This document shows, in pieces, positions 9,552-60,997 of a stretch of DNA of 64,000 nucleotides. Under the pieces are notes generated by a model that saw only the letters and a program-made list of their open reading frames with translations, was not told the origin of the DNA and made no database searches. Position 1 is the first letter of the stretch, and every line of letters starts with the position of its first letter. The position numbers and the translations under genes are program-made. This DNA comes from a virus. Its lineage: Duplodnaviria; Caudoviricetes. The stretch is taken from positions 1-64,000 of IMG/VR virus record IMGVR_UViG_3300032303_003166; one strand, written 5' to 3'.

Positions 9552-9580
9552 AATATAACCACACTAAAAACAAATGTAAA
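9552..9580 (-). promoter_or_regulatory. Sigma70-type early promoter TTTACA-N17-TATATT (representative)
   Basis: Same arrangement at 27638-27666(-), 28105-28132(-, N16), 39139-39167(-), 54119-54147(+), 15503-15531(+, TATTTT). Confidence 0.75.
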
Positions 9581-24920: not shown

Positions 24921-25349
24921 CTAGAAATCAAACCGAAATACACCCTCTTTTTTTACTACATAATTATCTAGTTCACGAAACTCTTCTGCGTAAATAGATC
25001 GCTTTTCTTCTTTTCTTTTTGCAATCTCTTGCAAATCTTCAAATACATATGCTCTTAGCTCTCTTGGCGCCCATTGAACTCCTATTATAAATAAACATTT
25101 TGCATAAGGTATTTCTTTTTTTAAAGCTATAAGATTATCAATCTGATGCTGCTTAAGATCAGCAAAGTTAAATGCTTCTACTTTATGTAAATACTTTCCT
25201 TCCCAATAAACAGGAAATCCTTTGGAAGCTCCAAAGCCATCAAATGGTTTTTTAGCTGCAGCTGCCCCTAAAGATGCGTCCAAATCACTTATCTTATAAT
25301 ACCAATCAAGACTATCACCTATTACTTTATTTAAATCACTCTCTTTCAT
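24921..25349 (-). CDS. RecU-like Holliday junction resolvase
   Basis: KPFDGFG...VYWEGK...LKQHQIDNL. Confidence 0.7.
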   Translation of the reverse strand: MKESDLNKVIGDSLDWYYKISDLDASLGAAAAKKPFDGFGASKGFPVYWEGKYLHKVEAFNFADLKQHQIDNLIALKKEIPYAKCLFIIGVQWAPRELRAYVFEDLQEIAKRKEEKRSIYAEEFRELDNYVVKKEGVFRFDF

Positions 25350-26380: not shown

Positions 26381-26980
26381 GTGTGGAAAATGATAAGAAA
26401 AAAAGCTTTACTTTTTTTGGATTTAGGCCAAGCATCAAAACTGTTCTTATTGCTCTTGCTGGTCTGTTTGCTATCTCCTTCACTGTTTACACAGGAGACG
26501 TCATCTACAACACCCTTACCGGAACCAGTGACAGTAAACTTACCACAATTATTAAACAGTTACAAGACGATCAAGCTACAGTTAGACAAAATATTAGTGG
26601 ACTACAAGACGCGCTTAATAGAACTTCAGACAGCGTTATCAGCCTCACAGGGCAATTATCTGCAATTGCAAGCACAATTGACAATATTGCAACAGTCCAA
26701 TCAGGAATTAAGCGATCTATCCAAGACTCTGCAAAGTCAATTGGAATTATTAGTAGATCAGTTGAAGACCTCAAAGGAAACCTTGGTGCAATTAACGAAG
26801 GAATTACAAGACTCCAAGGATCAAATAGCAGTTTTGAAAACCAATTACAGCAATTTGGAAACCTCAATCAACAGTTTGAAAACTATATCACAAAGCCTTG
26901 AACTCCAAAGAAATTTACTTCTCTGGGGAGTTCCAGTGGCTTTGATAATAGGCTTTGCTGCTGGCTGGTTCTTACATTAA
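26381..26980 (+). CDS. Overprinted spanin-like protein (signal peptide, coiled coil, C-terminal TM)
   Basis: LFLLLLLVCLLSPSLFT-QE signal, Leu heptads, LLLWGVPVALIIGFAAGWF anchor. Confidence 0.55.
   Translation: MWKMIRKKALLFLDLGQASKLFLLLLLVCLLSPSLFTQETSSTTPLPEPVTVNLPQLLNSYKTIKLQLDKILVDYKTRLIELQTALSASQGNYLQLQAQLTILQQSNQELSDLSKTLQSQLELLVDQLKTSKETLVQLTKELQDSKDQIAVLKTNYSNLETSINSLKTISQSLELQRNLLLWGVPVALIIGFAAGWFLH
26383..26901 (+). CDS. i-spanin-like protein (N-terminal TM plus coiled coil)
   Basis: TM segment VLIALAGLFAISFTVY then heptads; GTG start 8 nt after GAGG. Confidence 0.55.
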   Translation: MENDKKKSFTFFGFRPSIKTVLIALAGLFAISFTVYTGDVIYNTLTGTSDSKLTTIIKQLQDDQATVRQNISGLQDALNRTSDSVISLTGQLSAIASTIDNIATVQSGIKRSIQDSAKSIGIISRSVEDLKGNLGAINEGITRLQGSNSSFENQLQQFGNLNQQFENYITKP

Positions 26981-27618
26981 GAATTCATATAAGATGAAAC
27001 TTTTGCTCTAATGTTATTGGTGATCTTGTAATAAACATTAGTGGTAATTCCCATTTCTTTTTTGATTTCAGAGATAGATAAGCCGCGCTTTTTAAGAGCA
27101 GAGATCTTGAATTCTTCACTACTCAAATGCTTTTGTAGATCTTTAATAAAGAGTTCAGCTTTATGCTCATCATCATTCCTAATGAATTCATCTTCTGCAG
27201 AAATATGAGCATATTTTACAGAGTCTAGCATATTAGATTCCTCTTCGCCAAAAGACATGATTGGGCTCATTTCTTTATTTCCTTTAAGCGCTTTACGACG
27301 ATAAGTGCGGCGTAGATTAGACAGATAGAAACCATAAGGACCTAGAAACTTCCATTTATCATTCTCAACTTTTTCCATATTTGTATAGTTAAGAGCATCC
27401 ATAAATGCAACATATGAATCATTCTCAAAATCTGTTTTAAGATTTGCAAGATTGTTAGTGTAAGTCTTATTGTTAATCTTTTCAAGATTTAACCGAAGCT
27501 TTGACCAATGGTTATAAACAAAATTCTTATAACGAAAATATAGTTGATGAGTTGCCTCATCATTTCCTTGCTTTGCAAGTGTAGTTAAGCTGCGATCAGT
27601 CATCTTAGAATAGTCCAT
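26977..27618 (-). CDS. Sigma-70-like RNA polymerase sigma factor
   Basis: TDRSL..LAKQGNDEA..QLY.RYK region 2 start; C-terminal GLSISEI..EMGIT HTH. Confidence 0.75.
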   Translation of the reverse strand: MDYSKMTDRSLTTLAKQGNDEATHQLYFRYKNFVYNHWSKLRLNLEKINNKTYTNNLANLKTDFENDSYVAFMDALNYTNMEKVENDKWKFLGPYGFYLSNLRRTYRRKALKGNKEMSPIMSFGEEESNMLDSVKYAHISAEDEFIRNDDEHKAELFIKDLQKHLSSEEFKISALKKRGLSISEIKKEMGITTNVYYKITNNIRAKVSSYMNS

Positions 27619-27672
27619 GTATTCTCCTTGTAGGTCTAATATAATGCAGCGGTGGTGAATTGTAAAAAACTT

Positions 27673-28086
27673 TTATAGTTTTTCTTCTACAAAATTGCCT
27701 ATTTCATCAATAAATCGTACACGCTTAACACCAAACTCTTTAATGAGTTTCATGCATATGTGACAGGGACGAGAGAAAGATGGAGTGCCGTCATCAAGTT
27801 CACGATAAACATACATTGTAAGATTGTTGATGTCATGATGCTTTCTACGTACCAGTGCCATGAGCTCTGCATGGCTATTACGCAAGAAGTCTTCTCCCTC
27901 TTCATCAATATCTTGATACTCTGGATGAGTTTTTGAGAAAGTATTGTAACCCTTACTTACAACATTTTTGCCATTAATTAGAACAGCTCCCATTCTTTTG
28001 GATACCATTCGCGCGTTGGAGCTGTTTGAGGATGTTCTGGCCTGTCTAAAACCTAGTGCCCATCTCTCTGGCATCTTGTTGTGCAT
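27673..28086 (-). CDS. Zn-dependent cytidine/dCMP-type deaminase
   Basis: HAE and PCHIC motifs. Confidence 0.85.
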   Translation of the reverse strand: MHNKMPERWALGFRQARTSSNSSNARMVSKRMGAVLINGKNVVSKGYNTFSKTHPEYQDIDEEGEDFLRNSHAELMALVRRKHHDINNLTMYVYRELDDGTPSFSRPCHICMKLIKEFGVKRVRFIDEIGNFVEEKL

Positions 28087-28147
28087 ATGTACCTCTACTA
28101 AAGTAATATAATACGTGTTTGCACCGTGTAAAAAAGAATTTTACACC

Positions 28148-28252
28148 AGACTGCCATTATTGAGCAGTCTACAGTCTGCCATAAAATGGCAGCTATATAA
28201 TATCTATAATAGTAATAATATAATATCTATTCTCTTAGGAGACAGCGTCTCC
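28148..28252. repeat. Hairpin/AT-rich cassette, copy 1 (candidate origin)
   Basis: Three palindromic modules plus a 45-bp AT-rich spacer; homologous to 54005-54111. Confidence 0.8.
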
Positions 28253-28340: not shown

Positions 28341-29456
28341 ATGAAAGCTACTTTAAATCAGACTTTTTTGGATAGTGTGATTTCAATCAACCGTTATGTG
28401 TCAGTTATTAACGGTGTCAATTTGGACCGAAAGAAGATTGTATTTCTCTTCAAGAAATCTGGTGATTCTTCCTTATATTATATCAGCAATGGATTGTTTG
28501 CAAAAGCCAGCTTAGGATCACTATCCTGTGATGAAGATGCAAATTATGAAGTTGACTATGAAAAGTTTCTTCACCTAGTTCAAAATTCAAATGGTGACCT
28601 GGTAATTGAGGTCACTGATTCTACCATGAAAGTTACCACAGATGTGGCTATTGTGGACTTACTGTGTTCCAAGATTGAAGAAAAAGATCCCACCATGGAC
28701 ATTGTAAATGTGTTTAAGATTTCAGACTACTCTGAAAATATCTCATTGTCTGAGAATGTTATTGCTGGTATGGCCATGACCAATTCTCTCATTGCTCTTT
28801 CCAAGAACAATGCAGGATCTATATTTGACAATAAGGTTATGTACTCAGATAGATCTCAAATTTACACAAAAGATCTTGTTACCAAGTCTAACGTGGGAAT
28901 TTGTGATGATGGGTTGATTCTTCATAAGAATATTTTCTCAGTTCTTACAAACTTCTTTAAGTTTAACAAGAATGATCTCACTCAGGTTCTCTTAAAGAAG
29001 AAGCCCAAGACCTCTGACTCTTTTGTGATCTCAGACAACTCAATGGAGCTTTTTATTAGCAATGCTCAGGCTGAGGTTTCTCTTCCTACAGAAGATGATC
29101 TTAAATCTATTTGCCCAACTCATCATTCTTTCTCTCTTTCAAAAGAGGCTCTTGATGAACTGGTAGCATTCTTTTCTGGATTCTTTGTGGGCAACTCCTG
29201 GAAGCCGCTAACTTTTGTAAATAAAGACGGTGAACTTGAGGTTGAATATTCTGTACCGTCTGTAACTAATATCTCTAGAAAGGTTGGTCCACTAAACCCC
29301 GGATCTGCCTGGACCAAGTTTGTGGTTGACTCAGACTCGATCAAGAACTTTGTTTCAAAGCTTCAGGGTGAATTTGAATTCTATGTGGAAGAAAAGAAGC
29401 TAGGCATTCTTGTAAAGAATGGAACAGACAATATTGTATTTGCAAAGTTGGTATAA
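28341..29456 (+). CDS. Putative DNA sliding clamp (beta-clamp-like)
   Basis: 371 aa with three-fold beta/alpha pattern (VDYEKFLHLV, LILHKNIF..L, VDSDSIKNFV). Confidence 0.55.
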   Translation: MKATLNQTFLDSVISINRYVSVINGVNLDRKKIVFLFKKSGDSSLYYISNGLFAKASLGSLSCDEDANYEVDYEKFLHLVQNSNGDLVIEVTDSTMKVTTDVAIVDLLCSKIEEKDPTMDIVNVFKISDYSENISLSENVIAGMAMTNSLIALSKNNAGSIFDNKVMYSDRSQIYTKDLVTKSNVGICDDGLILHKNIFSVLTNFFKFNKNDLTQVLLKKKPKTSDSFVISDNSMELFISNAQAEVSLPTEDDLKSICPTHHSFSLSKEALDELVAFFSGFFVGNSWKPLTFVNKDGELEVEYSVPSVTNISRKVGPLNPGSAWTKFVVDSDSIKNFVSKLQGEFEFYVEEKKLGILVKNGTDNIVFAKLV

Positions 29457-36275: not shown

Positions 36276-38318
36276 ATGTCAGACATTAAAATTGTTCAAA
36301 ATACTTCAGTGATTCTTGATGATCTCATGGCCGGAGACATGTCCACTCTTTCCAGAGAGCAGCTTAAAAACTTTGATTTTAATAAAATTCAACTGGCGCT
36401 AGACTATCTGGTAAATAATGAAAATCTTTCAGAGGCCAAAAAGCTTCACTATATTGGAAATTCTTGGAAAATCTTTTATAAGCGTAAACCACCAACTCCT
36501 GAAGAGTTTATGACTGAAGAGTGGATAGGTCCACTTGCAGAGCATACTTATCCACGAGTAAAACAAACATTCTTGGATTTTATGAATCCTACAACGCCTT
36601 ATCGCAATCTAATTCTATACCCGCATATGGGATGGGGAAAAACGTACGCTGCTATGTTTATGTCACTCTATTGTGATACGCATATTGCGTTAATGAGAAA
36701 CGCTAAAAGATATCTAGGCTTGAACCCCGCATCTCCAATAGCCCGAGCATTTTTATCATTTTCAATTGAAAAAGTCCAAGAAACGTTACTTGAGCCATTT
36801 CTTCTTGCTCTTGAAAATAGTCCAATGTATGAGAAGGTTCATACACGAGACGGCATGGCCAAAAGAGAAGCAGAACAAGCTCATAACAATCAGATAGATA
36901 AAATATTCTGGACCACAGCTTCTCCTAGCTCTCATATTCACATATCCAATGGAACTCAAATTAAAATTGTTTCTAGCTTACACAGACTTCTAGGTCTAAA
37001 TCTGGTGGGTGGTGCAGTTACAGAGCTCTCTCACTTTAGAGAGGCCGGAATGACAGACGACTATATCATGGATACATTTTGGGAACTTAGAAACCGCGTT
37101 CAGGTTCGTACCATGAAAGGTAATTATTGGGGAAGAATTATCCTAGACTCGTCTCCTGATGATATAAGCGGAGCTGTTGATCAGTATATAAATGGTAACG
37201 CAAAAGAAGATCACACCAATATGATAGTACGTGGATCCATGTGGGAGTGGTCGCCAGAAAATCATGACATGAATAATTTATTTCCTATTTATAGAGGTGG
37301 AGCAGGGCGTCCTCCTCAAATACTAGAAGACTCAGAAATAAATAATTTTGATGTTAGTCAGGTTCTTTGGGTTCCTGGAGACTTAAAAAACTCATTTAAG
37401 AATAATCCAGTAAAATCCCTAAGAGACCTGGCTGGGCTACCATCTGGTAGTCAGGCTCGTTTATTTATGAATTATGAAAGCATTGATAGCTGTTTTTCAA
37501 CCAAATTAAAAAATCTTTATACCTATATTACTGCATCAACCAAAGATGATCCAAAAGATCTCATATGGAATAAAGTGCACTCTCAATTCTTTAAAAATGA
37601 TGGGCTAAAAGTTTCTTTCTATTATAAGCCGCATCTTCCACGAGCAATACACATTGACTCTAGTACAACAGGAGACATAACTGGTATTGCAGCTACTCAT
37701 GTGGAAAAGAATGCAGATACCGGTGAGATAATGTTTATAACTGACTTCAGTATTGCAATTGCTCCTGATGGAGGAAGAATAAGTCTTGATGCTGTAAAAT
37801 TCTTTATTGAAGATTTAAGAAATAAAGGTCATATGAATATTGCTCAAGTCTCATATGACACATTTCAATCAGAGGCATCAGTTCAATATCTTGAAAGTCG
37901 TGGCTTTAATATTGCCAAGCTATCAGTAGACAGATCAACTGAACCGTATTATCACCTATACTCTATGGTAGAGTCTGGGAGATTTAAGATGGGAAGAAAC
38001 ATATTCTTTAAGAATAATTTAAAATCTTTAGAAATTGTAAAAAGAAATAAAACAGGATCTCCTAAAGTAGATCATACCAACGGTCCAATACCTGATCCAC
38101 ATGGCGATTCTGCTTGGGAAACCAGCATTATTGGAATGAATGCAAAAGACGTATCTGACGCTGTATGCGGATCAGTATACGCAGCAAACATGATTTTGGC
38201 TCCACTAGGAGCTCCTGAGATCTGGAATGAAAGCCATGAAGGAATTCTTAGTAAAGATCTTGCAAAACAAAATTTGCAAGATTTTATGGACAAAATGGGA
38301 ATAGGAATAGCTATGTAG
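36276..38318 (+). CDS. terL: Terminase large subunit
   Basis: Walker A-like MGWGKT, ILDSSP coupling motif, RNase-H IHIDSS, YDTFQS, KVDH and KDVSDA. Confidence 0.85.
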   Translation: MSDIKIVQNTSVILDDLMAGDMSTLSREQLKNFDFNKIQLALDYLVNNENLSEAKKLHYIGNSWKIFYKRKPPTPEEFMTEEWIGPLAEHTYPRVKQTFLDFMNPTTPYRNLILYPHMGWGKTYAAMFMSLYCDTHIALMRNAKRYLGLNPASPIARAFLSFSIEKVQETLLEPFLLALENSPMYEKVHTRDGMAKREAEQAHNNQIDKIFWTTASPSSHIHISNGTQIKIVSSLHRLLGLNLVGGAVTELSHFREAGMTDDYIMDTFWELRNRVQVRTMKGNYWGRIILDSSPDDISGAVDQYINGNAKEDHTNMIVRGSMWEWSPENHDMNNLFPIYRGGAGRPPQILEDSEINNFDVSQVLWVPGDLKNSFKNNPVKSLRDLAGLPSGSQARLFMNYESIDSCFSTKLKNLYTYITASTKDDPKDLIWNKVHSQFFKNDGLKVSFYYKPHLPRAIHIDSSTTGDITGIAATHVEKNADTGEIMFITDFSIAIAPDGGRISLDAVKFFIEDLRNKGHMNIAQVSYDTFQSEASVQYLESRGFNIAKLSVDRSTEPYYHLYSMVESGRFKMGRNIFFKNNLKSLEIVKRNKTGSPKVDHTNGPIPDPHGDSAWETSIIGMNAKDVSDAVCGSVYAANMILAPLGAPEIWNESHEGILSKDLAKQNLQDFMDKMGIGIAM

Positions 38319-39132
38319 CTGCGCTTTTATTGGTGTATACCAGGCCACGTACTTTATGAAAGCCACGAGCTAGAGATGCAGAGCAATAATCAGCATGGCC
38401 TTGAAAGATACAAAACTGACAAGCGTAGCTAACAGTCGGCTTCCATTCAGTTTCTTCAGCAATAGAATCAATAGTTTGAAGAATAGAATCTTTGCTAATA
38501 TCCACATCAGAGAACTTAAGCTTAATAGACTTAAGAGTCTCAAGTGGAGAAGATTTGTACTTGGCATAAGGATAGTAAATATACACAGTAATCTTTTGCA
38601 AGAAGTCTTTGATAGGAACCTGAGGAGCATATTTGGCATGAACAGCCATGATATAAACTGAAAGCTGCAGGTCATGATCACCAGTGCCAGACTTGGCAGT
38701 CTTGTAATCAAGAACAATGTATTCATCGCCACGAATAAGAACCAGGTCTAGTACACCTTGAAAGCTTGCACCATCCAGGGAGAATTCAACTTTTTCTTCA
38801 GTATGAATCTGATCAAAGTTTCCACCCACAACAAATTCTTTCCAGAATACTTTAAAATTGCCAAAAGCAGCCTCAAGCTCAGGCAGATTGATAGAGTCAA
38901 TATCAAGCTTTTTACCATAATTTTCATATTCACGAAGCTTGGTAACCCACTGGTCAAAAGATAAAGATTCATTATCACGATAATGTTCAGCAATATAATG
39001 AAACGCAGAGCCTTTGGTAGTATGAGGACTGGCCCAATCAGCTTTAACACCAACATTATAGTTGAGATTGTATTCATTTTTGCATTGGTGAAACTTTTTA
39101 ATACGTGATGCTGACCAGACAATATTTTTCAT
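38311..39132 (-). CDS. Cas4-like PD-(D/E)XK exonuclease
   Basis: SASR...C, GSAFH, GVLD..LDYKT, QLSVY, CQFC...C. Confidence 0.85.
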   Translation of the reverse strand: MKNIVWSASRIKKFHQCKNEYNLNYNVGVKADWASPHTTKGSAFHYIAEHYRDNESLSFDQWVTKLREYENYGKKLDIDSINLPELEAAFGNFKVFWKEFVVGGNFDQIHTEEKVEFSLDGASFQGVLDLVLIRGDEYIVLDYKTAKSGTGDHDLQLSVYIMAVHAKYAPQVPIKDFLQKITVYIYYPYAKYKSSPLETLKSIKLKFSDVDISKDSILQTIDSIAEETEWKPTVSYACQFCIFQGHADYCSASLARGFHKVRGLVYTNKSAAT

Positions 39133-39315
39133 AAGTCTAATATAACAGGAGCCAAAGAGAATGTAAAAAAGTTATCTAACTTTTTTACTAGAATGACAAA
39201 ACAACAAAAAAGGAGCATTTCTGCTCCTTCTAAGTTGTTGTCTGGTATATACTTATTTTTGATCAAACTGACGAAACCGCGCAGGATGATGAAATCAAGC
39301 TAACGCCGTATGGTA

Positions 39316-51005: not shown

Positions 51006-51452
51006 ATGAAAGTAAATACCAAAGATATTGACACTCTTAGGAACAATCTCACCAGATATGTTCAAGAGGTAAAAGATGTCAATATCTCTTTGCATGATTC
51101 TTTACAAAATGTAGAAGAAATGTTAATTGCTTTGCAAGAAACACAAAATGAATATGTGAATCTAATAAAAACTTATAGATATGATACTTCCTCAGATTAT
51201 TATGCTTCATTTACCGGTAATGTTCAACCAAAAACAAAACAGCATGACCTAGCAGCAGACGCGGAATTAAATAAGACACTTAGAAAAGATATAGAAGACT
51301 TAGAGAATGGAATTGCACTAGAGCTAGGAAACTTTAAAAAATCTTTTAAAGAATTTTCTACCTATATACAAGATGCAACAGAAGCTTATGCCCATCATAA
51401 AGAATTGTGGGCACAACTTATAAAAGAAATAGAAAAAGCTCCTAAAAGCTAA
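51006..51452 (+). CDS. Hypothetical helical protein
   Basis: 148-aa coiled-coil ORF. Confidence 0.55.
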   Translation: MKVNTKDIDTLRNNLTRYVQEVKDVNISLHDSLQNVEEMLIALQETQNEYVNLIKTYRYDTSSDYYASFTGNVQPKTKQHDLAADAELNKTLRKDIEDLENGIALELGNFKKSFKEFSTYIQDATEAYAHHKELWAQLIKEIEKAPKS

Positions 51453-53449
51453 GCTTCAAGTACAATATCATCCCCGGTTTGTAGCTGATTGGCCTCAATA
51501 ACATGAATTACATTTTGTCTTTTAACAGACACTTTGTCTTTTTCCTGAAAGATATGTTCATGCCCAGATTCATCTTTAACTCTTAAAAACTTTTTGTCTT
51601 TGGCAAAGATTGGCCAAGCTGTTGAGCTGTGAAAATCTTTTTCCTTGGAATTATAAATCTTTCTAAGAGTTTCATCCTCTGCATCAATTCCTGCAAGACG
51701 AACCTGAAGTGAAGCATAGTCCAGACTAAAAATAACATAATCATCTGATGGAACATCAATAATAGCAGGAATTGTTTCATCATTTGCTGGAATCTGTTGA
51801 AGATTAGGATCCTTACATTTGCTACGGCCAGTGTCAGCTAACATATGAGCATAATTGGCACACATGCGATAACTTCCATCCGAATAAGGATTAATGTTTT
51901 TTCCCCAACCCTCATCATCTGTCTTTCCAATAAAAGTATTAAGAAGAGTATTGGTGGTTCTAAGTTCTTGAAGAAGCTCGGCCTCTCTATGACCCATCTG
52001 CTTCCATCGCTCAAGCTGATCTTCTCCAGTGAGATAGTCACCAGCTTTTGATACTCCAAGATTAGGCCAACCGAGAGCCTTTATCTTGGTTCCTAAAACC
52101 TTAAGTGAATTAAAGTCAAAATTTCCCACAATATTCATTGCTACACGCAATTCTTCTTCAATTTTCTTGATCTTTTCTTGAAACATGGTTCTTGCACTAT
52201 GAAGACGATCCATGGATACATATAGTCCATCATACTCCATTTGAGCAAATGCACGTAAGCTACGCATCATAATATCTTCATAGTATGAGGTCATGGTATA
52301 CCACTTATTCTTTTCATTGGGAAAAGTTGCATCCATCCAGGCCAAATGCTCTCTTTGCTTTTTCCAAACCTGATATGTTACAATAGCGTCCATGGTAGCA
52401 TACTTGGCCAAAGTTGAAAATGGAATCTTAGTATAATCATTTTCTCCAGTGTTCTCAATAAATTCATCCAACTCTTGTTCATAACCACCGTGCTTGGTAT
52501 AAAAATATGAATTGGTCTTGAGGCTATTACTACGTAGCTCATTTAACACATGTCCTAGCTGAACAATGTCTTCATGAATTGCAGCATTAGGAATTCCATT
52601 ACGCCATAAGAATTTACAGTCAAATTTTAAGTTAGCACCTATTTGAGTTTTCTTTCCAAGACATTCATTAAGAACTACCTTATCAACCAGATTCCATGGA
52701 CAAATATAGCCATTTATTCCATCAAAAGAAAAAGTTATAACACCAATCTTGGCTCTTACATGAGAGAAGCCACTTGTTTCCAAGTCCCAAGCCATGTGTG
52801 AATATCTAGAGTGTTGTTTGATAACTCTTATAAACTCTTCAGTGCTTTCAATCTTGTGAAGAATCACTTCATCCAATTCTTGATCTGCTGACAGCTCAGC
52901 ATATTTCTTTTCAGCAGTGTCCAGCTGCCAACGAGCAAAGTTCATCTTATAAGTGTCATAATACGGAGATAGTGATTGACCAAATGTCAATATTTGACTA
53001 AATGAGTCAATTGGAAATACATAACGACGAGTATGTTGATCAAAGAAATAGGTTTTGGGATTGGTAATAACATCATAAAGATAATTTACCTGTAAATCAT
53101 CTCGAGACACAGCATAGAGTGCAGAGCCAGAGGTAATGATAACTCCACGATCCTCAACGTATTGAGAAAACGGAGTCTTGTTCTTCTTGTAGAAGTTGGT
53201 TATACCGCCCTTGATATTTTCTTCAGTGGGTGCAATATATGATGCTAGTACAATACGATACGAATCAAAATACTTTTTAACAAGAGTGGATATTGCTTTA
53301 ACCTTTCTTGTATCATAATGCTTGTCCACAAGCACAAGAGCATAAGGTTCATTCTCAATAAAATTGTCTGCAAGAAGTATCTCTGTGTTTATTTCATCTT
53401 TCAACTTTTTGGATGAAGTTACAGAAATATTTCCAAAAGCAAATGCCAT
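51449..53449 (-). CDS. Family-A DNA polymerase, N-terminal part only (exonuclease through motif A)
   Basis: ExoI WDLETSG, ExoII NLKFD, ExoIII YATMD, TGR...PNLQQIP, motif A DYASLQVR, DFH..TA; motifs B and C absent. Confidence 0.9.
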   Translation of the reverse strand: MAFAFGNISVTSSKKLKDEINTEILLADNFIENEPYALVLVDKHYDTRKVKAISTLVKKYFDSYRIVLASYIAPTEENIKGGITNFYKKNKTPFSQYVEDRGVIITSGSALYAVSRDDLQVNYLYDVITNPKTYFFDQHTRRYVFPIDSFSQILTFGQSLSPYYDTYKMNFARWQLDTAEKKYAELSADQELDEVILHKIESTEEFIRVIKQHSRYSHMAWDLETSGFSHVRAKIGVITFSFDGINGYICPWNLVDKVVLNECLGKKTQIGANLKFDCKFLWRNGIPNAAIHEDIVQLGHVLNELRSNSLKTNSYFYTKHGGYEQELDEFIENTGENDYTKIPFSTLAKYATMDAIVTYQVWKKQREHLAWMDATFPNEKNKWYTMTSYYEDIMMRSLRAFAQMEYDGLYVSMDRLHSARTMFQEKIKKIEEELRVAMNIVGNFDFNSLKVLGTKIKALGWPNLGVSKAGDYLTGEDQLERWKQMGHREAELLQELRTTNTLLNTFIGKTDDEGWGKNINPYSDGSYRMCANYAHMLADTGRSKCKDPNLQQIPANDETIPAIIDVPSDDYVIFSLDYASLQVRLAGIDAEDETLRKIYNSKEKDFHSSTAWPIFAKDKKFLRVKDESGHEHIFQEKDKVSVKRQNVIHVIEANQLQTGDDIVLEA

Positions 53450-53481: not shown

Positions 53482-53964
53482 TTACTTTTGCCAGTTACTC
53501 AAATTCTTAAGAAAGCTTTGAAAAGAGTTATCTGCTTCTTGTGATATTTTTTTTGAATTCCAAAATCTAAGCTTGAGTGCTTCTTCTGTTTTGTTAGTGC
53601 GACTTTTACCCTCTTGATTAGATCCTATATTTAGGAGATAGCTGACGCTCTCTTGTTTACTTTCTAGATCAACTGCATTTTTTGCACCACTAAGAGCTTC
53701 CATTACAGAAACGCCGTCTTTGGTTTTTAATGCAGAAAGAAGTCCAATATTTCCAGTAGTAAAATCCAATAGATACATGCTATAACTTCCTAGAACAATA
53801 GAGTTTATTTGTCCTACCATCTCATGCATATTCTTTTCTCTGAGAACACCATATAGATTTTCTGGTGCTATCATTTCTTTTCTGTCTGATCCATTGATCC
53901 ATAGATTGATGTAACGGCCGTTGGCGGTGCGTTGCGCAATTGCGAAATACAAATTACTTTCCAT
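53482..53964 (-). CDS. Hypothetical late protein
   Basis: Leaderless start after TACTAAGTA. Confidence 0.6.
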   Translation of the reverse strand: MESNLYFAIAQRTANGRYINLWINGSDRKEMIAPENLYGVLREKNMHEMVGQINSIVLGSYSMYLLDFTTGNIGLLSALKTKDGVSVMEALSGAKNAVDLESKQESVSYLLNIGSNQEGKSRTNKTEEALKLRFWNSKKISQEADNSFQSFLKNLSNWQK

Positions 53965-54004
53965 TTCTACTTAGTAAAATTCTTCAAAATCAAACATAAT
54001 CTGC

Positions 54005-54111
54005 GGAGACAGCGTCTCCTAAGAAAAATAGATACTATATTTATTCTATTATAGATATTATATAGCTGCCATAAAATGGCAGTATGCAATATGCCATTAT
54101 TGAGCAGTCTA
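54005..54111. repeat. Hairpin/AT-rich cassette, copy 2 (candidate origin)
   Basis: Same modules as 28148-28252 in reversed order. Confidence 0.8.
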
Positions 54112-54172
54112 GAAAAAGTTTACAGACCCGGAATGTTTTGTTATATTATATTTATAAAATTGGAGGCAGACT

Positions 54173-56886: not shown

Positions 56887-57882
56887 ATGTCATATTTTAC
56901 AAAAGAAGAAAACTTTAAAGTCTTAACTTTTCTGATTGCAAGTCTAGGACTAAAAACCAAAAAGCATTTGTCTGAATCTGATCCTCAAATATTTATTACC
57001 TGCCCTGCACATTCTGACAAAACTCCGTCATGTTCTGTAAATGTGGAAAGAGGAATTGCTCATTGCTTTAGTTGTGGTGGTTCCTGGACGCTAAATCAAC
57101 TCTCAAAAGAGCATCTTGGAAAATCTGCATTTAAAATACTAGGCAAGCATTTTGACGAAGATACTGAATTTTTAAATTTCTTAAATAAAGCCAAAGAACC
57201 TGAAGATCATAAAAAATTACCACAAGTACAAATATCATTTGATGGTCCTATGATCAGACTTAATGATCTTTGCGTAACCTATCTATTAAATCGTGGAATA
57301 ACCCTAGAGATTGCACGAGAGTTTAAAATGAGATATATGGAAAAAGGATTTATAAATGGCACTCCTTTTTCCAAAAGATTGCTAATACCTGTGATTGAAC
57401 AAACTCATACTCTAGCGTATGAAGGCCGGGATGTTACAGGATTATCACTTAAAAAAGTTCTCTATCCGGCTGGCTCATCAGTAAATACTCTATATGATAT
57501 TGATAATCTAAAACGAGATGAACCGCTATATGTGGTTGAAGGCCTTATGGACCTGGCTATCTTACGACAAGACCCATATTTTAAAAATAGCACTTCTCTG
57601 TTTGGGTCAAATCCTACACGTAGAAAAGCCGCGTTATTATCAGACTTTAAACAAATAGTCTGGATACCAGACAATGATAAAGCTGGATATGATTCTGTAA
57701 CAGGATATTCTGAAATGATTGATCTTACTAAAACAAAGATCTCTATTTTGCGTGTTCCGTCATTTTGTAAAGACGTTGGAGACTTTCCTAAAAACAAATT
57801 CAACATCTCAGAAAAAAAAGATCAGTGGATTTCCAATATTGTATCACTCCAATCATTTAAGACTAACTTAATATCAAAATGA
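56887..57882 (+). CDS. DNA primase (CHC2 zinc finger plus Toprim)
   Basis: CPAHSDKTPS...HCFSCG; YLLNRGI; VVEGLMD; DNDKAG. Confidence 0.9.
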   Translation: MSYFTKEENFKVLTFLIASLGLKTKKHLSESDPQIFITCPAHSDKTPSCSVNVERGIAHCFSCGGSWTLNQLSKEHLGKSAFKILGKHFDEDTEFLNFLNKAKEPEDHKKLPQVQISFDGPMIRLNDLCVTYLLNRGITLEIAREFKMRYMEKGFINGTPFSKRLLIPVIEQTHTLAYEGRDVTGLSLKKVLYPAGSSVNTLYDIDNLKRDEPLYVVEGLMDLAILRQDPYFKNSTSLFGSNPTRRKAALLSDFKQIVWIPDNDKAGYDSVTGYSEMIDLTKTKISILRVPSFCKDVGDFPKNKFNISEKKDQWISNIVSLQSFKTNLISK

Positions 57883-59021: not shown

Positions 59022-60008
59022 ATGCTTCCATTTGATGCTATACTCGTAGATGTACTTAATGTGGCTTATAGAGTCTTAGAAGATCGCTATAAAAAGTCGC
59101 GCTTTCAACAAAAAAGCGTATATACAGACCTTTTTTCTAATTTTGTAAATACCATTAGAGAGATTGAATCTAAGTATCTTTCCACCACCGGAAATGTATA
59201 TTTGTTATTTGATAACTCTGACTCAAAACAAGATTTGCAAGATTCATTCTATAATGTAAGACGTAAAAATATTTATCCCGAATACAAAGTTCATAGAAAG
59301 AAAGACAACAAAGATTTTTATCAAACAATTGACCTCTTAAAATATTATTATATGGTCAATACTGAAAAGTATGTTTGTATTCAAATATCCAATTTAGAGG
59401 CTGATGATCTTGTAAAGCCAGTACTAAGTCATTACATAAAGCCAGAGGAAAGAGCTCTATTTATTACAAATGATTCTGATTGGGCACGATATATTTCAAA
59501 TCGTAATTTTATTCTGGATAATTTTGTAGAAGATCCCTCTTCAATTGATGATTATAGCAAGAAATTAGGCTTTCCAATTACAGAGAGCAATATTGTTCTT
59601 TATAAGTCTTTTTTTGGTGATGCTGCTGATGAGATTCCTCAAATTATTCCCAAGACAGAAAAAAACTTAGAAATGTTTTATGATATAATTAAAAGAAAAA
59701 ATGAAAATCTAAATGAGCTTGTATTAGAAGCTCGTAAAGGCGATCATCCTATTTTTAAATTGCCAGAATTTAAAACACAAATAAGAAATTCAGATGGAAA
59801 AATAGAAAAAGATTCTCTTTATAAGCTGGATCAATTTATTATAAATCTACGTTTAGTTTCATCTATTAGCATTGATAAAACACATCTTCTTGCAGCAACA
59901 GTTATGGGTCGTAATTCAATTAAGCTAAAAGAAGCTGTAGAAAAAGCCATGGGATTGCTTTCTTCTCAAAAGAAATTTACATTTGGATACAAGAGGCCAC
60001 GAGTTTGA
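59022..60008 (+). CDS. 5'-3' exonuclease / RNase H (FEN-like)
   Basis: ILVD, LFD, RK.IYPEYK.HR, LEADD, TNDSDW, GDAADEIP. Confidence 0.9.
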   Translation: MLPFDAILVDVLNVAYRVLEDRYKKSRFQQKSVYTDLFSNFVNTIREIESKYLSTTGNVYLLFDNSDSKQDLQDSFYNVRRKNIYPEYKVHRKKDNKDFYQTIDLLKYYYMVNTEKYVCIQISNLEADDLVKPVLSHYIKPEERALFITNDSDWARYISNRNFILDNFVEDPSSIDDYSKKLGFPITESNIVLYKSFFGDAADEIPQIIPKTEKNLEMFYDIIKRKNENLNELVLEARKGDHPIFKLPEFKTQIRNSDGKIEKDSLYKLDQFIINLRLVSSISIDKTHLLAATVMGRNSIKLKEAVEKAMGLLSSQKKFTFGYKRPRV

Positions 60009-60997
60009 TTTGTTTTTTTGGAGACGTACACTTTACAGACCAACGAGAGTATTTATATGAAGCTGGAAATGAGTTTTTAAGTTTTTATAAAAATTTATCA
60101 CAAAATAATTCTCAAAATATTGCTGTTTTCCTAGGTGATTTGGTTGAAACATTTATAAACAGTGGAAGAGTTTTTGAGCAACTTCACTTATTACTAGAAT
60201 ACTCAAAGTTTAAACATATTTATGTACTTGTAGGCAATCATGATTTGCGTAAGAGTAAGGGTAGAGAGCATCTTGCTTTTGAATTTATTCGTAATATGCA
60301 AAATGTTACCATTCTTGAAAAACCTTTTGAAGAAATCACAATTGAAGGCTATTCTTGTCTTTCACTTCCTCATTATAATCATATTGAGGGTTTGCCTCCT
60401 ATGTATGATCATTACAATAGCATTCCCAAAGAATTTACTAGCAAAACTTATGATTTTGTACTAGGTCATTTGACTGACAATACAATAAACGCTTTTGGAA
60501 AAGTAGCAGACCTATCTGCAATAAAAACAAAGAAATTAATTCTAGGACATATACATACCAGATCAAATTCCAGCTATATTGGATCTATTTATCCACTAAA
60601 TCCTCTGCAGAGTGATGAAACCAGAGCTATCTGGTGCTTGGATAAATATGACTGGTCAGAAATTTCTCTTCCAAAAATGCTAGGCTATTATGAAGTTGAA
60701 TTTCCTGAATCTCTTCCAGCTGTTGATCATAAAATCTCTTCTTGGACCGTCTATAATTGCTATGACGTGTCTTTACTAAAGCAAAAATATGGAAATATTC
60801 ATATTAGACAGGTAAACTCTAAACCTAAAAATTTAAATAAATCTGTCTTAAAGAAAGAGCATTTTCGTCTTTCGTTCTCTGATTCCCAATCTTCTAAACC
60901 AATAGATCTACTTAATGAGTTAATCAAGTCCTCAAGTACATCATATGATCGTGGAGCTGTTTCTATTTTAAAGAAACTATTATCTTCTCCTGCTTAA
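60005..60997 (+). CDS. Mre11/SbcD-like metallophosphoesterase (gp47-like)
   Basis: GDVH, LGD, VGNHD, GH, LGHIH, YIGS. Confidence 0.85.
   Translation: MICFFGDVHFTDQREYLYEAGNEFLSFYKNLSQNNSQNIAVFLGDLVETFINSGRVFEQLHLLLEYSKFKHIYVLVGNHDLRKSKGREHLAFEFIRNMQNVTILEKPFEEITIEGYSCLSLPHYNHIEGLPPMYDHYNSIPKEFTSKTYDFVLGHLTDNTINAFGKVADLSAIKTKKLILGHIHTRSNSSYIGSIYPLNPLQSDETRAIWCLDKYDWSEISLPKMLGYYEVEFPESLPAVDHKISSWTVYNCYDVSLLKQKYGNIHIRQVNSKPKNLNKSVLKKEHFRLSFSDSQSSKPIDLLNELIKSSSTSYDRGAVSILKKLLSSPA

Follow-up and report, generated by a model that had tools for sequence, protein, structure and literature searches.

A duplicated non-coding cassette with the layout of an iteron-type origin in a large uncultured phage

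What might be the role of two closely similar non-coding elements that are placed about 26 kb apart in a phage genome, in mirrored order and with most of their parts reading on the same strand? The question is raised by the window, i.e. the whole stretch of 64,000 nucleotides analysed here, which comprises positions 1 to 64,000 of the 93,583-bp IMG/VR record IMGVR_UViG_3300032303_003166. Direct sequence reading locates two cassettes of ~105 bases, copy 1 at 28148-28252 and copy 2 at 54005-54111. On the + strand copy 1 is ordered A, B, S, C and copy 2 C, S', B, A; read along the + strand, the modules A, B and C have the same sequence in both copies, and S is inverted. A previous sequence-only reading had described the mirrored order, the same-strand modules and the reverse-complemented spacer, and each of these points proved to be exact. 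Compared between the copies, A matches at 20/20 positions directly vs 10/20 inverted, B at 17/17 vs 14/17 and C at 15/15 vs 12/15 (ungapped), whereas S matches at 26/45 positions directly vs 42/45 inverted. The match counts of A, B and C were reached in none of the dinucleotide-preserving shuffles (0/100 for each module). S and the neighbouring arm of B together make up an inverted repeat of 56 nt with 88% complementarity.

The record is a linear fragment with a CheckV completeness of ~31%, probably derived from a jumbo phage of roughly 300 kb, so that per-genome counts made on it are lower bounds and the presence of two copies per genome is not established. No further cassette copy was found in the 93,583 bp, and a degenerate pattern that combines the S-proximal arm with the S repeat retrieved only the two known loci from IMG/VR. 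Independent contigs of relatives with 96-99% identity repeat each local layout (L001 and L004 at locus 1, L054 and L073 at locus 2), which argues against an assembly artefact. The cassette is a real, conserved cis-element, present in two copies in the fragment, with a familiar architecture and in an undescribed phage lineage.

Sites A and B are closely related to each other. The sequence-only reading had regarded A as a module in its own right, and its exact repetition in both copies stands; A itself is, however, a degenerate version of B: the two share the left half-site, but the right half of A is degenerate, and its core differs from the CTGCCAT-N3-ATGGCAG dyad pattern at 3 positions. In copy 1, A also has outer arms (AGACTGC/GCAGTCT), and the outer arm is degenerate in copy 2 and almost intact in the relative L073. 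As expected of iteron origins, the sites are repeated at regular phasing: both are 17-bp 7-3-7 sites with centres 25 bp apart in both copies, and also in both lineages compared below. In both copies B adjoins S and A adjoins the flanking promoter.

A census of hairpins with a stem of at least 6 bp and a 3-nt loop counts 63 in the record against 36 expected, and among these no B- or C-like hairpin occurs elsewhere. Since the A, B and C motifs and the 14-bp motif of S are found nowhere else in the record, they do not belong to a general promoter or terminator family. Exact matches to B and C in IMG/VR come from near-identical relatives, with the addition of one unrelated phage that has the 17-mer of B. 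In that phage (L002/L003) the 17-mer lies inside an intergenic repeat of its own, ~75 nt in length, ~25 nt upstream of successive start codons (L002:4090-4170, L002:4530-4610 and L003:760-830); we judge the match to be due to chance or unrelated.

Table. Positions of the cassette modules and of the neighbouring genes and promoters, numbered as in the window except where indicated.
Feature	Position	Strand	Remarks
Site A, copy 1	28152-28171 (dyad 28148-28170; 7-3-7 core 28151-28167)		imperfect dyad, distal site
Site B, copy 1	28176-28192		perfect 7-3-7 palindrome (CTGCCAT-N3-ATGGCAG), proximal, abuts S
Spacer S, copy 1	28193-28237	+	45-bp AT-rich tract, probable DNA unwinding element
14-bp repeats of S, copy 1	28195-28208, 28218-28231		
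Palindrome C, copy 1	28238-28252		G+C-rich, 6-3-6
Palindrome C, copy 2	54005-54019		
Spacer S', copy 2	54020-54065	-	reverse complement of S
14-bp repeats of S', copy 2	54050-54063, 54027-54040		
Site B, copy 2	54066-54082		abuts S'
Site A, copy 2	54092-54111 (core 54091-54107)		
dCMP deaminase gene	27673..28086	-	left of copy 1; Pfam PF00383 E 7e-11, PHROG 174
Sigma70-like promoter TTTACA-N16-TATATT	28105..28132	-	reads leftwards, away from copy 1
DnaN-type beta sliding clamp (by predicted structure)	28341..29456	+	right of copy 1; 371 aa
Family A DNA polymerase, N-terminal fragment	51449..53449	-	3'-5' exonuclease and first part of polymerase domain; PF01612, PF00476
160-aa protein	53482..53964	-	left neighbour of copy 2
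Early-type promoter TTTACA-N17-TATATT	54119..54147	+	reads rightwards into operon (54-aa ... primase); conserved in lineage X
DnaG-like primase	56887..57882	+	operon right of copy 2; PHROG 47 E 1e-31
Exact early promoters	9552-9580, 27638-27666, 28105-28132, 39139-39167, 54119-54147; 88955-88982 (genome)		

The spacer is the physically most distinctive part of the cassette. Nearest-neighbour duplex stability, computed in 41-bp windows, ranks S1 (-35.8 kcal/mol) and S2 (-36.1 kcal/mol) as the least and second least stable windows of the 93.6-kb record, ~3.6 sd away from its mean of -50.1 kcal/mol (sd 3.9). S is likewise the least stable stretch, by a clear margin, in 6/6 cassette-bearing relative loci tested (5 distinct cassettes), and remains so even where its distal half has diverged; a comparable extreme is absent from the four cassette-less relatives tested. 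The proposal of an unwinding element is thereby borne out in silico, in that S provides the adjacent AT-rich tract of low stability that characterizes iteron origins. Because the extreme is conserved, selection seems to act on meltability itself. S also holds a 14-bp motif twice, as direct repeats 23 bp apart.

Both cassettes are located in divergent intergenic gaps, and the strong promoter on the A side reads away from the cassette in each case. The sequence-only reading had also placed the copies beside sigma70-type promoters and replication genes, and this is supported by TTTACA-N16/17-TATATT at both copies, by the dCMP deaminase and clamp genes at copy 1, and by the PolA N-fragment and the primase operon at copy 2. 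The promoter beside copy 1 matches the E. coli consensus at 10/12 positions; it is conserved both in lineage X and in L055, a relative that lacks the cassette. Six sites in the record have the exact form, two of them flanking the cassettes, and from its sequence it looks like a phage-specific strong early promoter form. A further, TACT(A/T)AGTA-like motif occurs at both loci (53965-53985 and 28093-28110), at most ~12 nt from the start codons of the leftward genes; as a promoter element, it would entail very short leaders.

The clamp protein has no Pfam, PHROG or PDB-sequence match. The lead to its identity came from the Atlas, and its AlphaFold model (pLDDT 86.5) aligns over its full length with bacterial beta clamps in Foldseek (E 7e-16, TM 0.7-0.78); on the basis of the predicted structure, it is a DnaN-type beta sliding clamp. 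Its gene has a conserved proximal promoter-like element of its own, downstream of C. The family A polymerase is split, and the gene for the N-terminal fragment is on the copy 2 side. Upstream of it is the gene for the 160-aa protein, which has a conserved C-terminal NSFQxFLxNL tail and is found only in the cassette-carrying lineages (W, X), being missing from the cassette-less 59% lineage.

Among the genes neighbouring either copy, in a fragment that represents ~31% of the genome, neither an initiator nor any other protein that would bind the sites was found, and DnaB_C is absent from the fragment. The 160-aa protein was considered as the site-binding protein and set aside, having no Pfam, PHROG or Atlas match, a pLDDT of 62 in AlphaFold and no Foldseek match at E <= 0.001. 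Another protein considered for this role has 213 aa (26977-27618, - strand), with a C-terminal HTH and an N-terminal region resembling sigma-factor region 2; from these sequence features it is probably a phage-encoded sigma-like factor. It was rejected for its sigma-factor look, and since it is kept in a cassette-less relative, it is a poor candidate for binding the sites. The fragment also encodes a RecU-like resolvase (24921-25349, -), a PD-(D/E)XK nuclease (38311-39132, -) and a calcineurin-like phosphoesterase (60005-60997, +), which together suggest a phage with its own recombination machinery.

Related phages were informative. The modules were found at both loci in the close relatives and also in a more distant lineage, termed X, with ~69-74% amino acid identity in clamp and polymerase. 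Lineage X is represented by L052, L071 and the X-like L067 at locus 1 and by L064, L065 and L072 at locus 2, with L071 and L072 originating from one metagenome. The order of the layout is common to 8/8 aligned cassettes, all of which are collinear in the S-to-C frame. In lineage X both loci have the half-site CTGTCAG, where both loci of the window have CTGCCAT; the sites therefore changed in concert. The left half-site of A co-varies with B in lineage X. Site sequences that co-vary with lineage, another property of iteron origins, are therefore found here, and from the sequences this is the pattern that would be expected of sites matched to one trans-acting protein.

The arrays are nearly invariant within each genome, with identities of 20/20 in the window and 34/35 in lineage X. 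In the latter, S is inverted between the loci, whereas the 35-nt array stretch reads on one and the same strand at both, the array having been flipped in its entirety, together with its inner spacer. Locus 2 of lineage X has an A-type site next to S and lacks a B palindrome; single-strand folding of this locus yields only the C hairpin and none for A or B. Palindrome C retains perfect dyad symmetry through three different stems among the relatives, and its centre is AGC, AGA, GGT, CTTGT or lacks a loop altogether.

The cassette is not found in every relative. L055, a relative whose clamp is 87% identical, has no cassette at locus 1, where a gap of 124 bp (L055:2877-3000) retains intact promoter-like elements on either side. 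Among close relatives, presence or absence of the cassette is therefore polymorphic. Relatives with 44-59% identity lack it too, and no analogous cassette was found within 40 kb in relatives with 45-59% identity. The absences at locus 1 of the 87% relative and in the distant relatives imply that the cassette is dispensable, at least singly.

We tentatively conclude, at a probability of roughly 0.45, that the cassettes are a pair of compact iteron-type replication origins or origin-like initiation sites. Anatomy, conservation, co-variation, meltability and context are observed, and it is from these that we infer binding, melting and initiation. Phased inverted-repeat sites, a meltable AT tract and a palindrome together make up the layout of an iteron origin, and for this reason we read the cassettes as origin-like sites. 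Their location at points of transcriptional divergence beside replisome genes favours the same reading. In such a mechanism, the dyad-symmetric 17-bp sites A and B, 25 bp apart, would be bound by a lineage-specific and probably dimeric phage DNA-binding protein. The 45-bp TA-rich S with its two 14-bp repeats would then open as the unwinding element, aided by negative supercoiling between the flanking divergent promoters, and the G+C-rich palindrome C would bound the melted zone. The replisome genes (clamp, polymerase, primase) would be supplied from next door, and two such sites 26 kb apart on the fragment would be comparable to oriL and oriR of SPP1. The notion of paired origins, already put forward by the sequence-only reading, is thus a reasonable one in view of the meltability of S and the promoter and gene context, but the GC-skew check does not add to it: the cumulative skew tracks gene orientation, without a clean minimum or origin signal. 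The dispensability of the cassette and the lack of an initiator among the genes of the fragment searched count against origins, as do two further features. A and B are centred ~55-86 bp upstream of the start points of the strong early promoters, a position that would also suit an activator, and the polarity of A/B relative to S differs between the two copies.

The anatomy resembles that of the lambda ori, which has a palindrome beyond the AT-rich tract, as C is placed here. A lambda iteron is an imperfect inverted repeat, and two iterons with the adjacent AT-rich tract constitute the minimal unwinding-competent ori (PMC7466680). The cassettes share with it the tandem arrangement of imperfect inverted repeats (17-19 bp) next to an AT-rich tract; their site sequences also vary among related phages, as those of lambdoid phages do together with the initiator. 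They differ in being intergenic rather than inside an initiator gene, in the lack of an O-like protein among those found here, and in comprising two copies with the unwinding tract in opposite orientations, and their function is predicted. In SPP1, the initiator G38P binds two discrete distant sites with similar affinity, and oriL consists of iterons and an adjacent AT-rich unwinding element (PMC5737612). The common features are the pair of discrete, distant sites in one phage genome and, as far as oriL is concerned, repeats beside an AT-rich tract; in SPP1, however, oriL is inside gene 38, the repeats are AB boxes instead of 7-3-7 dyads, and the initiator is known, whereas for the cassettes it is hypothetical.

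T4 offers a third comparison. It has several origins, and the more active ones are located where transcription diverges; in their minimal form, oriF and oriG measure ~100 bp including an A+T-rich unwinding element, and oriE, with its evenly spaced repeats, requires an early promoter (PMC3016281). The cassettes are similar in forming multiple sites of ~100 bp at transcriptional divergence with an A+T-rich unwinding element. In oriF and oriG, however, the promoter reads into the unwinding element and forms an R-loop, whereas the strong promoters of the cassettes read away and only a weak promoter-like match points into S; the iterons of oriE are 12-nt direct repeats.

The main rival to paired origins is transcription control, which accounts for promoter proximity and co-variation equally well, although we consider it the less likely of the two. 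In this case a dimeric regulator encoded by the phage would act through A and B, as tandem operators or activator sites situated between the strong early promoter and a second promoter in S whose -35 element overlaps the S-proximal arm. The clamp and polymerase operons would be co-regulated, and C would be a further operator or a 5' stem. The 17-bp 7-3-7 dyads at 25-bp spacing indeed resemble lambda-type operators, and the sites are 8-18 bp from the -35 elements of the early promoters at both loci in both lineages. The S-proximal arm in lineage X is CTGACA, followed by a -10-like hexamer 17-18 bp further on, and the promoter scan of copy 2 gives ATGGCA-N18-TAGAAT. In every case S-C points at the clamp or the polymerase operon, and half-sites that co-vary between lineages would suit a regulator as well. 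Moreover, the promoters on both sides persist in the cassette-less relative, which makes the cassette an optional add-on.

Several observations, however, are not easily reconciled with control of transcription. It gives no reason why the most easily melted 41 bp, both in the record and at every relative locus, should be those of S, and the most conserved part of S would fall in a promoter spacer. The putative promoter in S is weak in copy 1, and the clamp gene keeps a promoter-like element of its own downstream of C. No regulator gene was found. Repressor operators of the lambda type overlap the core (-35/-10) of the promoter that they regulate, next to a repressor gene; no such gene was found here, and A and B do not overlap the strong early promoters (centres at ~-55 to -86) but may overlap a possible weak promoter in S. 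Another promoter, composed of the right half of A and the centre of B and reading into S (TTGAGC-N16-TAAAAT), occurs only in copy 1 of this lineage and was rejected as a conserved element.

The sole unusual detail of the cassettes is that the orientation of the array is uncoupled from that of the unwinding tract. In the iteron origins studied so far, the orientation of the iterons relative to the unwinding element is usually fixed. It is conceivable that the strand polarity of the A/B array is itself functional, as it is the same at both loci and in two lineages despite the inverted unwinding tract. Both sites might, for example, load helicase or primase on the same strand, such that forks fire co-directionally, or else the dyad centres might be flipped in a programmed manner, as a flip-flop by which a site is turned on or off. 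We regard either possibility as unlikely; if true, it would make for an origin whose initiator has a polarity independent of that of the unwinding element.

Instead, the same-strand centres of A, B and C are probably products of small local inversions between the short inverted half-sites. Where short inverted repeats allow template switching, the spacer that separates them is known to become inverted (PMC8604942). The earlier proposal of strand-specific hairpins is weakened accordingly. The two loci differ by flipped dyad centres in the window lineage and by a flipped array in lineage X, and flips of the centre would be neutral for dyad-symmetric protein sites. Alternatively, the same-strand centres may have arisen by direct-register conversion between palindromic modules, which would also explain the 100% identity of the array within the genome.

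The sequence-only reading had favoured strand-specific hairpins as primase, initiator or nicking signals; read on single-stranded DNA, A, B and C might likewise act as N4-like hairpin promoters, and any such role would account for loops that stay on one strand. Such hairpins do fold on either strand of copy 1 (three of them, with 6-7-bp stems and 3-nt or 9-nt loops, z ~-5). The loops and module A are identical on the + strand of both copies, the A/B array is on the same strand at both loci of lineage X as well, and in one relative the closing pair of B carries a change that is T.G-compatible on the + strand. The conserved hairpin with loop bases fixed on one strand that is typical of N4 virion-RNAP and G4-type signals, however, is not seen, since only C folds everywhere: the B palindrome is missing from locus 2 of lineage X, where neither A nor B folds, copy 2 of the window has a degenerate A hairpin, and the centre of C varies among relatives and is missing in one perfect palindrome. 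The half-sites, furthermore, co-vary at both loci in the manner of protein-binding sites. There is neither a genome-wide family of such hairpins nor an Rfam match to the cassettes, and no RNA polymerase family match occurs among the proteins scanned against Pfam or PHROGs. With loops that are not conserved and hairpins that are lost in lineage X, a signal read on single-stranded DNA is improbable.

Recombination or mobility, with the inverted S or the direct A/B serving as sites for inversion or excision of 26 kb or with the cassette as a small mobile element, could draw on the 56-bp inverted repeat 25.8 kb apart, on the presence/absence polymorphism among close relatives and on the RecU-like and PD-(D/E)XK nucleases of the phage, but it is very unlikely, since 12/12 related contigs have the same flank pairing without any inversion or deletion isomer of the 28.2-54.0 kb segment, the fragment has no tyrosine or serine recombinase (PF00589 and PF00239 unmatched), and the cassette ends have no visible terminal inverted repeats or target-site duplication. 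The recombinase gene and alternative isomers known from Hin/Gin, shufflons and Cre-lox were accordingly not found here, the suggestion of recombination signals finds no support in the absence of any integrase or resolvase match of that kind from the fragment, and a MITE or other mobile element was rejected for want of terminal inverted repeats or a target duplication. PeSL cassettes of T4-type phages, in which many copies of an early promoter and a terminator-like stem-loop flank small accessory ORFs, were likewise dismissed, there being only two copies here and no terminator-like site in the scan of either region.

Should the cassettes be origins, they would provide two short (~105 bp) and precisely bounded candidate replication starts in a large uncultured freshwater phage, together with a defined 17-bp site that could be used to fish for the initiator of the phage. 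For interpretation from sequence alone, they call for caution, because short inverted repeats that flip their centres can mimic strand-specific conservation. The pair is also a natural experiment in which the same array is present in both orientations relative to the unwinding tract, such that any dependence on orientation could be read directly.
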